Source: Candidatus Latescibacterota bacterium (GTDB lineage Bacteria; Latescibacterota; UBA2968). Taken from it: DNA of 14,327 bases. Where the stretch lies: positions 1-14,327 of the forward strand of contig JAYODI010000113.1 of assembly GCA_038279365.1 (NCBI GenBank). The letters run 5' to 3'. The notes under the pieces were generated by a model. The model was given only the letters and a program-made list of their open reading frames with translations, had not been told where the DNA came from and made no database searches. Below, in pieces: positions 4,221 to 14,200 of the stretch. A program made the position numbers and the translations under genes. Each line of letters opens with the position of its first letter. Position 1 is the stretch's first letter.

Positions 4221-5453
4221 ATGGCATTTGCCTTTAATACCAATTCGCAACCCCAAGACAAGTTCAAATTTGTGGTTGGTTTGCGATTTGAACTGTTTTA
4301 CGCACTCCAAACACTCACATATCACAGCACACCAACTTGTGACGATGGCAAACGCATTGGTATGCATTTGGGTTGGAAACAAAAAACGCTTCAAAAATTG
4401 CCACAGGCCTTTCATGACAATTTTAAAACCTTGGGTGGTTCACCGCATTTTTGGCCAGCAATTGCTGATGCATTGGAGTACTGCCCCATTGAAGCTTCTT
4501 TTGAAGACATCATCACCTATCTCAAAAATCTCGATCCATCCGATTTTCGAGAATCTATTTTGGTGGGCACCTTGCACGAGCAAGACATTGTTAACGATTT
4601 GATCTCGGGTGCCAAAACCTTAGCAGATGTTTCTGAAAACGCACCCGAGCAAGAACAAAAGTGGCTTGAATTTTTAGGATTAAGACCCTATCAGGCAGAT
4701 GCCGACATTGTCAAAGCTATGAACAGTCTTATCCATACGCCCGAGGCATTCAAAAACACACTCGTAGAAACGCTTCGCCTCATTTGGGATATTGAACTGG
4801 AATCTATTTGGTTGTCTGAATATCCACAACTGGTCAAATCGATAGAAGAAAAGAAACGGCTCTTTGAAACCTATACATTGCCAGAGTTTTTAGAACGTGC
4901 CTTAGACAATGACAAAACTGTTGCCATGAAAATTGATGAGGAAAATCAAACCCTTGTCTGTTGCAAAGGCCAGTTCCGAATTCCTTTTCATAAGCTGGGC
5001 AGTTTCTCGCTCATGCCGTCTATTTTTAACAGCATGAGATTCTGGACATTTTACGAATATGGTGATTATACCAACATCTTTCTCCCCTACTTTGTCTATG
5101 ACTTAACCCTTGATGGTGATGAAGAAACATCACCTGAAAACGTTGTGTCGATCTCATCCAACGGCAAACGGGTGCCCGAAATGAATCCGTCACTCATATT
5201 TAAAGCCTTAGGTGACAACACCCGATATGCCATTATTGCACACATTGCTCAAACACCGTGTACTGCAGCAGAACTTTCAAAAATATTAAAAGTATCCAAA
5301 CCCACGATTTCACATCACGTTCAATTATTGCGCGAGGCTGGGTTGTTACTTGAAGAACCTGCAGCACGATCTATTCAATTATCGCTCAAGCGCGAAGTAA
5401 TTGAACATTTGTCTCAAGCAACAGTTGGAAATCTTTTTAGCAGTGTAAATTAG
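4221..5453 (+). CDS. ArsR/SmtB-family transcriptional regulator with C-terminal winged HTH and long N-terminal domain, 410 aa
   Basis: C-terminal FKALGDNTRYAII...TAAELSKILKVSKPTISHHVQLLREAGLL is a typical ArsR HTH. RBS GGAG at 4210-4213. Confidence 0.88.
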   Translation: MAFAFNTNSQPQDKFKFVVGLRFELFYALQTLTYHSTPTCDDGKRIGMHLGWKQKTLQKLPQAFHDNFKTLGGSPHFWPAIADALEYCPIEASFEDIITYLKNLDPSDFRESILVGTLHEQDIVNDLISGAKTLADVSENAPEQEQKWLEFLGLRPYQADADIVKAMNSLIHTPEAFKNTLVETLRLIWDIELESIWLSEYPQLVKSIEEKKRLFETYTLPEFLERALDNDKTVAMKIDEENQTLVCCKGQFRIPFHKLGSFSLMPSIFNSMRFWTFYEYGDYTNIFLPYFVYDLTLDGDEETSPENVVSISSNGKRVPEMNPSLIFKALGDNTRYAIIAHIAQTPCTAAELSKILKVSKPTISHHVQLLREAGLLLEEPAARSIQLSLKREVIEHLSQATVGNLFSSVN

Positions 5454-6618: not shown

Positions 6619-7890
6619 TTATGCACGAAAATATGAGCTGGGATTGCCGTGTGGTGGAATGCGGCTAAAGGCATCGTCATTGGCAAGCGTCATGGCAATG
6701 CCCAAAGGTGCGGCATCGGTATCGTCACAGCGCATATTAAATGTGGTGCCTCCCCACCGTGTGCCAACCACCAACACATCAAAACGCGTAAACCGTTCTT
6801 GAATGCGATCAAATGCAAGGTGACCTAAAATGTGGGGTTCAAAACCACGCTCTTCCACCAAGCAACACATCTGCCCGCGTCGATACACCGAACGCGAAGG
6901 CGGTTGAATACACCACGATCCACTTTCTTGAAGCTTACCCCCACCGTGTAGCGTCATATAAACATGATCCATATCCACATCGGTTACCAACAATTCCAGT
7001 GCCACATCTTGTGGCACATCTTTGGGCCAAGGGGGTGTTTCGCCACGCACAATGTCTAACATGTGATAACGAACCAGACGCCGATGAATGGCCTCGGGCA
7101 GTGAAAAACGATCGCCCTTTTGAACGCCCTCAGGTACAATAGATAACATCTCTTCACGTGTTAACCATACAAAGTCTTGATTGTGTGCCAAGCGTTGATA
7201 ATCGCCATCGGGGCGTGTATCAATTTTGCGGGGCAAATCGGTACAGCCCAAGTGCAACACCAGCCCATCTTCGGGATAATGCCAAACATATTTGGTATCG
7301 CGGGAAAAGTCGCCAATTTGAGACACATCTTTTTGCGTGGTGCGGTTGTCCCAATTGCTCAGTGCTTGATGGAGCATTGCAAGCAACTCATCGGGATCGG
7401 CTGTGTGACGCGAGCCCAACAACTCTCCCTCAATGGTTGCTACAAATTGCCCTTGATGACATTCACCGTGATCGGTTTGCGCCATTTTTGCAAGGGCTTC
7501 ATCAAATGAAAGCTTGAACCGGCCTTGTAATGCAATGAGGCGAAAACAGCGGCCTTCTTCGTCATCTTGTCGTTGTAAACTGTTAATATCAATCGCAGCT
7601 GTTACAAACCGTTCGTTTAACAGTTGGATAATGCGTGGGTCAGAGTATGTGCGCTCACGGCGCACAACACCATTGTTTCAGACACAGCCAACGGGGTGGC
7701 CATTCATTGCCCATAAAAAAAGCGGTTTGTTTTCTTGGGCAGATCGTTGACGGGCAGGCCAAAACTCGGTTTCCCACTGAATTTCTGTCCAACGCTCTGT
7801 TTGGGGTTTGGGCAAACATTGGGCAAATACTGCATCAAACGTATCTAATGTTACCTCTGGTGGTGGGTTTTGTATGATATCGTTGTACAT
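6619..7890 (-). CDS. Predicted selenoprotein, thioredoxin-like/SelN-like, 423 aa with Sec at codon 71 (TGA 7680-7678); joins ORF-track entries 7678..7929 and 6619..7665
   Basis: The two ORFs are in the same frame, separated only by TGA plus AAC AAT GGT GTT. Joined reading: ENKPLFLWAMNGHPVGCV-U-NNGVVRRERTYSDPRIIQLLNERFV. RBS AAGGAG precedes ATG 7890; SECIS-like hairpin lies directly downstream of the TGA. Confidence 0.85.
7644..7671 (-). promoter_or_regulatory. Bacterial SECIS-like hairpin
   Basis: mRNA GGUG-U(bulge)-UGUGCGC-CGUGA-GCGCACA-UACU: perfect 7-bp upper stem and a 5-nt loop with GU at loop positions 2-3. There are 18 nt between the UGA and the loop. Confidence 0.75.
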
Positions 7891-7912
7891 CCAATTACTC
7901 CTTTTAAGAAAA

Positions 7913-7985
7913 CTGTCGCAGGTCTGCAAGTCGCAGGTCAGAATCTTTAAGTCTTTGTTTTTTGACCTGCTGACTTGTGACTTGA
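7913..7985. repeat. REP-like palindromic element built from heptamer units (GCAGGTC / GACCTGC), copy A
   Basis: CTGTCGCAGGTCTGCAAGTCGCAGGTCA...TGACCTGCTGACTTGTGACTTG. Related copy in inverted orientation at 10210-10287. Confidence 0.75.
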
Positions 7986-7986
7986 T

Positions 7987-9009
7987 TTATTTATCTTCTA
8001 AAAGCTCTTCGGAATATGCAAACAATGCTGGTGTACCTCCTGTGTGCACAAATACAACCGTTTCATCTGGTCCAATATCCCCTTTTTGTATGAGGTCTAT
8101 TAAACCAGCCATCGTTTTTCCCGTGTAGATAGGCTCCAATAAAATGCCTTCTTTTTCGGCCATCAAACGCACAGCCGCATTGCCTTTTGCAGTACAATAC
8201 CCATATCCTTCTTCACCCACATAGGCACTGGTGTTCTCAATATCAGAAACATCAAATGACAAGTCCACACCCAAAATATCCGACATTTTGTTCAACACAC
8301 TTAAAAAAGCGGTTTGAATATCATAAGACCACACGATTGGGGCAATGCCCATAATGCGTGTGTCTATGCCCAACATTTTTTTGCCAAAAATCAAACCGGG
8401 TTGTGTACAACTTCCCGAGCATAAAATAATGGTTGTTGGTTTTTTACCCAATGCTTCACACTGTTCTAAGATCTCTGCCATACACAATGCGTATCCCATT
8501 GCACCATAAGGACGGTTGGCTTTTTGCATGACGGTGAACGGTTTGCGCCCTTCACGTGTGAGCCGGTTGACCAAAGCATCTTTGGCTTCATCTAAAAGCT
8601 CTTGTGTTTCGACATCGATCATATCTACCGAAGCACCAAACAAATCGTCTAACAAAAGATTGCCTTGTGTTGTGCCACTTTTATGATCTTTCACCATTGC
8701 CAGGGCACAATCTACACCCAGCTTGGCGGCAGCGGCTGAAAGCTGTCGACAGTGATTGGATTGAGAACCTGCCCCACCTATGAGCACATCGGCACCGCGT
8801 TCCAAGCCTTGTGCAATTGTAAACTCCAGTTGCCGTGTTTTGTTGCCACCAAAAGCCAAACCTGTGCAATCATCGCGTTTGATAAAAATTTCGGGACCAC
8901 CCAAGGCCTCGCTTAATCTTGGACAACATTCTAATGGGGTTGGCAAATGCCCCAACTTTACACGTGGTAATTTGCCAATGTGCGCACGTAAATCTAAAAT
9001 GGTCACCAC
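7987..9009 (-). CDS. D-cysteine desulfhydrase / ACC deaminase family PLP enzyme (DcyD-like), about 340 aa
   Basis: PTPLE, KRDDCTGLAFGGNKTRQLEF (PLP lysine), QSNHCR, GILLEPIYTGK, FVHTGG. Start placed at GTG 9009 behind AAGGA; GTG 9006 is also possible. Confidence 0.9.
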   Translation of the reverse strand: MVTILDLRAHIGKLPRVKLGHLPTPLECCPRLSEALGGPEIFIKRDDCTGLAFGGNKTRQLEFTIAQGLERGADVLIGGAGSQSNHCRQLSAAAAKLGVDCALAMVKDHKSGTTQGNLLLDDLFGASVDMIDVETQELLDEAKDALVNRLTREGRKPFTVMQKANRPYGAMGYALCMAEILEQCEALGKKPTTIILCSGSCTQPGLIFGKKMLGIDTRIMGIAPIVWSYDIQTAFLSVLNKMSDILGVDLSFDVSDIENTSAYVGEEGYGYCTAKGNAAVRLMAEKEGILLEPIYTGKTMAGLIDLIQKGDIGPDETVVFVHTGGTPALFAYSEELLEDK

Positions 9010-9214
9010 AAGCCATCCTTTCAATATCTATCCCAATAACACATACCGCATTTGATCACTGCATTTATGGAAAGGGAAATATGATCACATTGCAAGCAAA
9101 ATTATCTCAGGCGCAAGGGATAAAACTTGCGCCCAGGATGCCCTTTGCGTACCTATAATAGGCCTCAACATTTCTTTAAAAACGAAAATCAGCAACATAT
9201 TTCGAGGTGATCTT

Positions 9215-11107: not shown

Positions 11108-12613
11108 ATGTCTCAGCCCAATATCTTGCTCATCATTTCTGACCAAATGGTAGCTCACCTCACGGGTGCCTACGGTCACACTGTTGTGCAAACGCCTGGC
11201 CTCAACAGCTTGGTCGAACAGGGCGTGCGCTTTGACGCGGCCTATTCCCCCTTTCCGCTGTGTTCACCTGCCCGTGCCTGTCTTATGACGGGTTCCTTTG
11301 CAGCCAACATCGGTGCTTATGACAACGCCTCCGAACTCCGCTCCGACATTCCCACTTTTACACATTACCTCACCAACGCCGGTTATGATACCGTACTTTC
11401 TGGCAAAATGCACTTTGTTGGTGCCGATCAACTCCACGGCTTCAACAGACGCCTCACCACCGACATTTATCCCGCCGATTTTCAATGGGTCAAACCCGAG
11501 TGGATCAAATTAAAAGAAGCCAAAGGCGATGGCTACGAAGACATTATGAGCACCCGTGCCACCTACCATTCTAAAAACTATGTGGGCCACACTCTCAAGA
11601 TTGGCACTTGGAATGCGCCTTTAAGTTATGATGAAGAAACCCATTTTCGGGCCTTGGAATATCTGCACGCAATGGGGCAACAAAAAGACCACAAACCTTT
11701 TCTTTTGTGTGCGTCTTACCACCACCCTCACGAACCTTTTTGGTCGCCTCAAAAATATTGGGATCAATATGAAGGTGCCGAAATAGATATTCCAGACCTG
11801 CCCGACAACTTAGATGATACCTATTCTATGATGGACAAATGGCTCAATGCCTATCACGGCACCCGACGCAACGACTTGCGAGATCGCGACGCGCTTTATA
11901 AACTGCGTCGTTCCTATTACGGCCTTGTTTCTTATATGGACAACAAGGTATCTGAACTTTTGGATAGCCTCAAAGAAAATGGGCTTCACGACAATACCAT
12001 TGTCATTTTTATATCTGATCACGGCGATATGCTTTGCGAAAAAGAAATGGTTCAAAAACGCACTTTCTATGAATGGTCTGCCCGTGTGCCTTTCATTGTT
12101 CGTTTTCCCGACGGCTACCAAGCCGGCAAAACCATTGACCAACCTGTTTCCCTCATCGACATTTTGCCCACCTTGTGTGACCTTGCCGACGTAGACGATC
12201 GCCTCCCCTGCGACGGTCAAAGCATTATGCCTCTTATTGATGGTACTGAAACCGAAAATCGCACGGTCTTCTCAGAGGCCTACGAAGCTGTTGCCGCCCC
12301 CTGTATAATGGCCAGAAAGGGCCATTATAAATACGTCCACATTCACGAACACCCGGGCCAACTCTTTGATCTGTCCACCGATCCTGGCGAATGGCATAAT
12401 CTCTTGGGGCACCCAGAAACAGCCGACATTGAAACCGATTTGCGCGCTCAAATTTTCGAAAACTTTGACCCCGCTGAAATTGCCGAAGACAACCTCGACA
12501 GCCTCTACCGCCGTCAAATGATCAACCAAGCCCAGCAAACCAATAACGTCTCGTGGGCGCACACGCCCACCTTCAACCCCAACAAAAATTCGCTCAGCCA
12601 ATACCTACCCTAA
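11108..12613 (+). CDS. betC: Formylglycine-dependent sulfatase, choline-sulfatase (BetC)-like, 501 aa
   Basis: PNILLIISDQ and the CSPAR signature. YDNA...LSGKMHFVGADQLHGF..RLTTDIYPADF closely matches my recollection of BetC. SDHGDM present. The substrate is inferred. Confidence 0.8.
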   Translation: MSQPNILLIISDQMVAHLTGAYGHTVVQTPGLNSLVEQGVRFDAAYSPFPLCSPARACLMTGSFAANIGAYDNASELRSDIPTFTHYLTNAGYDTVLSGKMHFVGADQLHGFNRRLTTDIYPADFQWVKPEWIKLKEAKGDGYEDIMSTRATYHSKNYVGHTLKIGTWNAPLSYDEETHFRALEYLHAMGQQKDHKPFLLCASYHHPHEPFWSPQKYWDQYEGAEIDIPDLPDNLDDTYSMMDKWLNAYHGTRRNDLRDRDALYKLRRSYYGLVSYMDNKVSELLDSLKENGLHDNTIVIFISDHGDMLCEKEMVQKRTFYEWSARVPFIVRFPDGYQAGKTIDQPVSLIDILPTLCDLADVDDRLPCDGQSIMPLIDGTETENRTVFSEAYEAVAAPCIMARKGHYKYVHIHEHPGQLFDLSTDPGEWHNLLGHPETADIETDLRAQIFENFDPAEIAEDNLDSLYRRQMINQAQQTNNVSWAHTPTFNPNKNSLSQYLP

Positions 12614-12892: not shown

Positions 12893-14200
12893 ATGCCCAA
12901 CCAACCCAACATCCTCTTCCTCTTCCCCGACCAACTCAGATTCGATTGGATCTCCGGCAACCCTCAAATCCCGGTTCGCACGCCCCACCTCGACCGCCTT
13001 CGTGCCCAAGGCACCACCTTTGCCAAAGCCGTTACCCCCTCTCCTTTGTGCGCCCCTTGCCGAGCCGCCCTTGCCCTGGGCGTTGAATATCACCACAGCC
13101 CTGTTCAAGGCAACGGCGAAAATGTGCCTCTAAACGCACCGACCTTCTACAAGCATTTACGCGATTCTGGGTACCACGTGATGGGGTGTGGCAAATTTGA
13201 TTTGAACAAGGGCGACTGCATTTCTCGCAAACCCGCCTGGGGGCTTGATGGCAAAAAGAATTTACACGCGTGGGGTTTTTCTGATGGCATCAACAATGAA
13301 GGCAAAATGGACGGTGCAAACAGTGGCAAAGAAAAACCGCAAGGCCCCTACCTCCAGTTTTTGGAAGAACGGGGGCTCCGTCAGGTTCATATCGACGACT
13401 TTGCGGCGCGCAACAAAACATCGTCATTTGCTACGCCACTTCCCGACGACGCCTACTGCGACAACTGGATTGGGCAAAACGGATTGGATCTGATTGATTC
13501 CGTTCCCCCAAACAAGCCGTGGTTTCTCCAGGTGAATTACAATGGTCCTCATAACCCGTGGGATATTACCGAATCTATGAAAGCGCTCTACAAAGACGCA
13601 CCATTTCCTGCCCCCAATGCAACCGATGACATCGACCCCGAGGTGCACCAAGACGTGCGCCGAAACTACGCCGCAATGGTCGAAAACATTGATCGTTGGA
13701 CGGGGAAGTTTTTAGACAAGCTCACCGAACGTGGCGAACTTGAAAACACCCTCATTGTCTTTTCTTCGGATCACGGTGAAATGCTTGGCGATCAAAATTT
13801 GTGGGGCAAAACCCAACCCTATCACCCTTCCGTCAGCGTGCCCTTGGTTATTGCGGGGCCACAGGTAAAACACGCGACAACAAATGTGCCCACCACCATT
13901 CTCGACCTACCCGCCACCTTTTTGGATTACGCCAATGTGCCCATTCCTCCAGAAATGGACAGCCGTTCTTTGCGCTCTTTCTTGGAAGGTCAAACGACTG
14001 CCCATCGCAAAGTTGTTACGTCCAGCCTTCGCAACTGGCAAATGGTTTATGACGGGCGTTTTAAATATGTTGAAGGCTTTATCGACACCCCTCAGTTTTT
14101 CGATCTTGAAAGTGACTCGCTCGAAAACAACAACCTCATTACCCACCCCAATGCGGTCGAACAAATTGCACGATTAAAAGCACAACTGCCAAATCCATAA
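12893..14200 (+). CDS. Formylglycine-dependent sulfatase family protein, 435 aa, substrate unknown
   Basis: PNILFLFPDQ, RTPHLDRL, CAPCR signature (CxPxR), GPHNP, ENTLIVFSSDHGEMLG. No signal peptide. Confidence 0.9.
   Translation: MPNQPNILFLFPDQLRFDWISGNPQIPVRTPHLDRLRAQGTTFAKAVTPSPLCAPCRAALALGVEYHHSPVQGNGENVPLNAPTFYKHLRDSGYHVMGCGKFDLNKGDCISRKPAWGLDGKKNLHAWGFSDGINNEGKMDGANSGKEKPQGPYLQFLEERGLRQVHIDDFAARNKTSSFATPLPDDAYCDNWIGQNGLDLIDSVPPNKPWFLQVNYNGPHNPWDITESMKALYKDAPFPAPNATDDIDPEVHQDVRRNYAAMVENIDRWTGKFLDKLTERGELENTLIVFSSDHGEMLGDQNLWGKTQPYHPSVSVPLVIAGPQVKHATTNVPTTILDLPATFLDYANVPIPPEMDSRSLRSFLEGQTTAHRKVVTSSLRNWQMVYDGRFKYVEGFIDTPQFFDLESDSLENNNLITHPNAVEQIARLKAQLPNP

Follow-up and report, generated by a model that had tools for sequence, protein, structure and literature searches.

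Within the 14,327-nucleotide contig JAYODI010000113.1 of a Candidatus Latescibacterota bacterium (assembly GCA_038279365.1), hereafter called the window, positions 6619-7890 of the minus strand form a single gene for a 423-residue protein. With a probability of close to nine in ten, we read this protein as a selenoprotein, a thioredoxin-like redox protein whose UGA at codon 71 would be decoded as selenocysteine (Sec) by SelB and tRNA-Sec. The reading frame continues across the UGA, the codon is conserved among relatives, an RNA hairpin resembling a selenocysteine insertion sequence (SECIS) follows it, the genome encodes the Sec machinery, and the predicted structure is a thioredoxin-type fold with residue 71 at its active site. 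A sequence-only reading of the window had proposed a hidden selenoprotein at this position, a proposal upheld by the conserved TGA, the hairpin, the machinery and the existence of cysteine-containing relatives; it had also called the protein selenoprotein N-like, a label that does not stand. Altogether, the gene represents a large and apparently undescribed family of thioredoxin-fold selenoproteins in which a C-x-U centre is combined with an uncharacterised C-terminal domain.

Gene structure and reading frame

Under standard gene calling the locus appears as two minus-strand open reading frames (ORFs), one of 83 residues (7678-7929, TTG start, with an in-frame ATG at 7890) and one of 348 residues (6619-7665, GTG start), which share a common frame and are separated by one TGA (7678-7680), exactly as the sequence-only reading had described. 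Reading through from the ATG at 7890 gives 423 codons and a TAA stop at 6619-6621, the translation of TGA as U71 being the only step outside genetic code table 11, in the context ...NGHPVGCVUNNGVV...; Cys69, the partner residue in the C-x-U motif, is encoded at 7684-7686. A Shine-Dalgarno-like AAGGAG (7898-7903, minus strand) lies 7 nt 5' of the ATG, and inspection of the sequence 5' of the GTG at 7665 revealed no such motif, so that both earlier statements on ribosome-binding sites were confirmed. The window has 11 long genes, and this is the only one with an in-frame TGA. Furthermore, matches obtained by tblastn and in whole genomes cover query residues 1-423 and cross the TGA. In protein databases, all 87 of 87 matches cover at most 83% of the query, corresponding to the part after the TGA, which agrees with the expectation that gene callers would split the gene.

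Conservation of the UGA and of the upstream coding region

Of 120 related loci, 119 have the in-frame TGA at one and the same alignment column; the remaining locus lacks that region. All ten reference-genome loci carry it within WAMNGHPxGCVUNNG and have a conserved N-terminal part. In a scan of the phylum Latescibacterota, 45 of 168 genomes gave matches; each of the 47 matches covering the site holds exactly one TGA, the other five match rows being fragments. In the distant branch, at about 30-40% identity to the window protein, metagenome contigs retain the TGA in 79 of 80 loci: one locus (L136) begins downstream of the Sec site, and another (L140) keeps the TGA and frameshifts just after it.

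Conservation extends to both sides of the codon. The Sec residue lies within an invariant block, W-A-M-N-G-H-P-x-[GA]-C-[VT]-U-N-N-G, and an alignment of 32 members shows W39, P56, M62, N63, G64 and C69 to be invariant. The regular expression [GA]-C-[VT]-U-[NG]-N-G is satisfied by 117 loci (104 distinct sequences), and C-[VT]-U is present in all 104. At codon 71, homologues carry TGA or Cys between conserved flanks, as had been anticipated. A paralogue, L041, has Ser at the position of Cys69 and keeps Sec; its genome (G042) holds three family paralogues, of which L041 (G042:C1:5837604-5838848) reads Ser-Val-Sec for Cys-Val-Sec.

Equally important is the behaviour of the region before the UGA. 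Compared with five relatives, the 60 codons 5' of it show a proportion of nonsynonymous differences (pN) of 0.07-0.31 and of synonymous differences (pS) of 0.71-0.85; pN lies well below pS, and the upstream part is therefore translated and under purifying selection. In addition, metatranscriptome contigs from two studies span the TGA unchanged. One RNA-library contig (X16) covers 7362-7711 with 0 differences and a second (X15) covers 7301-7872 with 9 differences, none of them listed at 7678-7680; contigs from the DNA runs X4 and X6 lie outside the TGA. The RNA-library contigs independently confirm that the TGA is no assembly error, and the notion of a sequencing error is contradicted by its intact presence in both.

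A SECIS-like hairpin after the UGA

A hairpin resembling a bacterial SECIS (bSECIS) is located at 7644-7671 (minus strand), with an upper stem formed by 7660-7665 and 7649-7654 and the loop CGUGA at 7655-7659. The upper stem has 6 bp (GUGCGC/GCGCAC) and is accompanied by a bulged U and five lower pairs; the 5-nt loop starts 18 nt after the UGA and has G followed by U at positions 2-3. The minimum free energy (MFE) is -13.3 kcal/mol, and 5 of 200 shuffled sequences fold equally well. The published bSECIS model specifies a loop of 3-9 nt, a stem of 4-16 bp, a G in the first two loop positions, a spacing of 16-37 nt and an MFE of at most -7.5 (PMC13188914, Fig. 2 legend), and the window hairpin agrees with it in all of these respects.

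Covariation was examined in an alignment of the window branch containing 23 of 28 distinct segments, from which one segment with an N (L050) and four near-duplicates (L054, L056, L058 and L060) had been left out. Standard pairs are found in every cell of the upper stem across the 23 sequences, three of the six pairs are altered on both sides (in 8, 10 and 6 cells), and sliding the stem partners lowers pairing to 32-72% of cells. The covariation score of 0.407, as against 0.217 for shuffled alignments, was reached by 0 of 500 shuffles. In close relatives, moreover, pS falls from 0.71-0.76 before the UGA to 0.43-0.47 just after it, a reduction in synonymous divergence consistent with RNA constraint.

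The distant branch (71 sequences) carries another hairpin, 4 nt further on, of the form CCAGAC-[AG]GUC[UCG]-GUCUGG, which is 94% paired and has a folding energy of -8.3 kcal/mol; in the 63-nt alignments around the UGA (A4 and A5), AGA (Arg) and UCU (Ser) codons apparently form its stem. RNAalifold applied to all 99 distinct segments found no consensus structure: the register of the hairpin differs between the two branches, which were then analysed separately.

Selenocysteine machinery of the genome

The earlier proposal called for selA, selB, selD and tRNA-Sec in the genome, and all four are present. Profile scores amount to 592 bits for selA, 379 bits for selB and 367 bits for selD, all above their cut-offs, and the tRNA-Sec scores 68 bits, also above cut-off, with an ARAGORN call of SeC and the anticodon TCA. 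The four genes form one cluster on contig C34 of the genome (G000 contig C34:31069-36920; L001, L009, L014, L018). TGA ends 664 of 2999 long ORFs of the genome and is thus an ordinary stop there, so the codon has not been reassigned. Across the phylum, selA exceeds its cut-off in 131 of 168 genomes and is found in 43 of the 45 genomes with the family, the two exceptions being 80-81% complete; this co-occurrence is supporting evidence only, because related genomes are not independent. The selD of the same genome itself carries one in-frame TGA and is therefore a second selenoprotein gene.

Predicted fold, domains and localisation

AlphaFold2, run on the alignment of 32 full-length members (A3), returned a mean predicted local distance difference test score (pLDDT) of 90.6 and a predicted template modelling score of 0.89 for the whole chain, with pLDDT values of 80-83 at residues 61-80. 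The model comprises a thioredoxin-like domain of residues ~30-185 (7336-7803, minus strand) and a mostly beta C-terminal domain of residues 190-423 (6622-7323, minus strand) with no clear known relative. In the first domain, strand 57-62 leads through the loop NGHPVGCVU into helix 72-79, so that Sec71 stands at the N-terminal end of the first helix, where the active site of a thioredoxin lies; the predicted structure thus has the beta-alpha-beta arrangement of thioredoxins, and the fold would belong to the thioredoxin-like class of UAS/AGR/DsbD-gamma type. The claim that C69-V70-U71 sits at the redox position of a thioredoxin fold is supported by this model, as is the claim that a split would cut the domain midway, since the cut falls between strand 1 and helix 1.

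Of 69 distant loci, 58 have a hydrophobic stretch of 12 residues N-terminal to the conserved domain, a feature that none of the 23 loci in the window's clade shares. On hydropathy alone, from which localisation was judged, export or membrane anchoring is thus probable for most of the family, and the window protein, as a member of the Latescibacterota-type clade, is probably cytoplasmic.

Family size and distribution

A search with the family profile, built from A3, against a protein library clustered at 50% identity retrieved 3381 representatives at E<=0.001, of which 591 pass the stricter threshold of E<=1e-30. Among the best 150 of these, 139 begin after the Sec column, consistent with truncated gene calls, and the 14 distant database homologues that were aligned likewise start at or just after the TGA. 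In protein searches the family is accordingly encountered as truncated "hypothetical protein" or unnamed entries without the active site. The remaining 11 of the best 150 are full length and have no stop at the Sec column; four of them carry Cys there, namely P0151 (CTC), P0187 (CNC), P0092 (STC) and P0127 (QAC). The P0187 protein (738 residues) consists of the two-domain module followed by a long extension.

The family spans at least Latescibacterota and Planctomycetota-like lineages, and the protein-atlas neighbours of the 348-residue ORF are all unnamed clusters, most often from Planctomycetota. Fusions were also observed by eye: in P0090 (1541 residues) and P0236 (812 residues) the two-domain module is C-terminal in proteins containing a Ser/Thr kinase, and neither Sec nor Cys is found at the active column of these forms.

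Proposed mechanism

In the proposed mechanism, UGA71 would be decoded as Sec by SelB and tRNA-Sec under the direction of the hairpin beginning 12 nt 3' of that codon. A selenol/thiol redox centre is suggested by the Sec at the N-terminus of helix 1 and the Cys that precedes it by two residues; judging from fold and motif, Sec71 would most likely be its nucleophile. One possible cycle would take the centre from its reduced state to a selenenylsulfide of Cys69 and Sec71 and back; another would proceed in a peroxidase-like manner through a selenenic acid resolved by Cys69. The protein's role would then be that of an oxidoreductase whose substrate is held in place by the conserved beta-rich C-terminal domain, which is packed against the first domain in the model and is likely to be the substrate-binding part.

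Alternative explanations and opposing evidence

Were the TGA a genuine stop or a sequencing error, the 348-residue ORF would be the only product of what would then be a pseudogene or a pair of separate genes. Every database entry is indeed called as a split ORF, and the GTG at 7665 could serve as a start. Against this, the TGA is kept by 119 of 120 loci, even where protein identity is as low as about 30%, and by independent RNA-library contigs; the region upstream of it is under purifying selection; the GTG lacks a ribosome-binding site; and a split would separate strand 1 from helix 1 of the thioredoxin-like fold. We consider this explanation extremely improbable. Read-through of the UGA as some other residue, with near-cognate or recoded decoding inserting Trp, Cys or Gly, is very unlikely too. 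Other selenoproteins are known to receive Cys at Sec-UGA codons when selenium is scarce, which counts in favour of such decoding; this has to be set against the full Sec machinery and SECIS-type hairpin, the use of TGA as a normal stop in this genome, and the residues at the Sec column of the 11 full-length relatives, where neither Trp nor Gly occurs in any and Cys occurs in four.

It may also be that Sec is real and that the C-x-U motif, instead of serving a disulfide-type oxidoreductase, is a metal or metalloid site or takes part in sulfur or selenium handling. C-x-U motifs also occur in families outside the classical oxidoreductases, such as UshA-like proteins and rhodanese-like form 3 (PMC13188914, Table 1); in the paralogue L041, Sec is accompanied by Ser in place of Cys69, so a redox couple of two residues is not a strict requirement; and a gene for a pyridoxal phosphate (PLP)-dependent enzyme lies upstream, in close relatives only. 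On the other hand, Sec occupies the classical redox position of a thioredoxin-like fold, the N-terminus of the helix, and no conserved metal-handling neighbours were found, so that we regard this function as rather unlikely.

Several observations weigh against the interpretation of the window gene as encoding a thioredoxin-like redox selenoprotein. Sec at residue 71 is itself a prediction from sequence, RNA-fold and genome evidence, and we infer selenol/thiol oxidoreductase chemistry from fold and motif. The RNA-library contigs may stem from carried-over DNA. As regards the RNA, the 66 nt after the UGA as a whole fold no better than shuffled sequences (z -0.28), the hairpin alone standing out, and the hairpin of the distant branch shows little covariation, its sequence being conserved and 65 of 500 shuffles reaching its score. 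No Pfam family reaches its cut-off in the window protein, the thioredoxin-like model PF03190 (Thioredox_DsbH) scoring 15.1 bits against a cut-off of 27 bits. Among 149 flanking ORFs there is no conserved partner gene, and none points to a substrate. Finally, seven of the 11 full-length representatives without Sec carry a residue other than Cys at the Sec column: Ser in P0124 and P0203, Ala in P0101 and P0236, Asp in P0183 and P0090, and Arg in P0104. Part of the superfamily thus dispenses with the redox residue at this position. The sequence-only reading had named a non-Cys residue here as grounds for rejection; such residues are confined to divergent members, the flanking MNG/NNG blocks being degenerate in five of the seven and mostly kept in P0101 and P0104, and in its conserved core the family carries Sec, with Cys in some members.

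Relation to selenoprotein N

It appears improbable that eukaryotic selenoprotein N (SELENON) has its bacterial orthologue, or a close relative, in the window protein. Published descriptions present SelN as a type II membrane protein of the endoplasmic reticulum that has an EF-hand and carries SCUG within its thioredoxin domain, the motif being taken here as quoted in PMC12839072. In SCUG the Cys is adjacent to Sec, whereas the window family has C-x-U; in the window protein no EF-hand family was detected (Pfam, E<=1) and hydropathy indicates no N-terminal hydrophobic anchor; and the domain order differs, the thioredoxin-like domain of the window protein being N-terminal. SELENON is also absent from the homologue matches and from the PDB-sequence and N-domain profile matches, which is weak evidence given a word index and no solved structure. 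The resemblance that had suggested the label, a pattern after the motif, lies in residues 37-103, which match general thioredoxin-like Pfam models weakly, and this pattern is probably generic to the thioredoxin-like subgroup. What the two proteins share, Sec in a thioredoxin-type domain and a presumed redox function, is a likeness of general fold class only, and the SelN label should be dropped until tested.

Relation to other known families

Known thioredoxin-like groups are approached by the window family only below threshold. Matches to the DsbD-gamma, Thioredoxin_7, DsbH (DUF255), AGR and UAS group remain under the Pfam cut-offs, and PF13899 is touched by five of 32 members at E >= 0.0064. 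The window family differs from this group in its C-x-U in place of CxxC, in a longer loop between strand 1 and the active site, and in its fusion to a beta domain of 230 residues that is absent from the proteins of the group. No NCBIfam model reaches its cut-off, zero families being assigned to the window protein, and a profile search against PDB sequences gave no match (best E 1.9).

With Sec-Trx, DsbA-like, VPGUxxT and Sec.1 selenoproteins the family shares Sec in a thioredoxin-type active site, a SECIS within the coding region and the existence of Cys relatives. Compared with the known thioredoxin-fold selenoproteins it is distinguished by two domains, a length of about 420 residues and the dominance of Sec forms, and the VPGUxxT models are touched by only three and two of the 32 members (E >= 0.0034). 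A 2026 review lists 119 prokaryotic selenoprotein families and subfamilies with domain identifiers and motifs, in which 'Thioredoxin-like selenoprotein Sec.1', with CxU and assigned to PF13192, is the sole thioredoxin-like CxU entry (PMC13188914, Table 1). PF13192 was not matched by the window protein (E<=1) nor by the 32 members (E<=0.1), and no family in that table pairs a DsbH/Thioredoxin_7-type domain with this motif.

Neither a literature search nor BSepDB (zero term hits) yielded a description of the family, although papers and supplements beyond the search may contain one. Searching with the N-domain profile for longer proteins recovered the same truncated family and no named protein, within the reach allowed by a word index. 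A "hypothetical" Planctomycete selenoprotein candidate is listed in PMC4807772 (Table S9), the text of which does not allow a link to the window family to be established. Since Sec forms far outnumber Cys forms, methods based on Sec/Cys pairs would tend to miss the family; in a passage of PMC12013277 the authors of deep-Sep state that their tool may miss families without Cys homologues.

Genomic neighbourhood

Immediately upstream of the selenoprotein gene, at a distance of 97 nt and on the same strand, lies a gene for a PALP-family PLP-dependent enzyme (7987-9024, minus strand; E 4e-45). A PALP gene is found upstream only in L036, L038, L040 and L050; the pairing recurs in close relatives alone (L038, L040 and L050) and so may be a clade-specific operon. 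Elsewhere in the window, a 410-residue ORF (4221-5453, plus strand) has an ArsR/MarR-type helix-turn-helix only at residues 330-377, its N-terminal 320 residues having no Pfam match; the same gene is found near the selenoprotein gene in L038 and L039. Tandem sulfatase genes (11108-12613 and 12893-14200, plus strand) adjoin polysaccharide deacetylase and epimerase genes in what looks like a polysaccharide-degradation neighbourhood. At one metagenome locus (L108:3-1187), the neighbouring gene encodes a DUF3179 protein, a family among those containing selenoproteins (PMC13188914).

Significance

Thioredoxin-fold selenoproteins are already well known, and the principle described here is not new; the family itself is absent from curated model sets and from the 2026 inventory. 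A more far-reaching view, which is speculative and on balance unlikely, would see in it a nearly Sec-obligate, mostly exported two-domain redox enzyme with a new substrate-binding fold in its C-terminal beta domain, ranking among the largest uninventoried selenoprotein families and possibly the prokaryotic source of the thioredoxin/UAS-type Sec domain of SELENON. Correct annotation would raise the selenoproteome counts of Latescibacterota and Planctomycetota-like lineages and would open up for study a new Sec-dependent redox enzyme, in most of its members probably extracytoplasmic, whose partner domain is uncharacterised.
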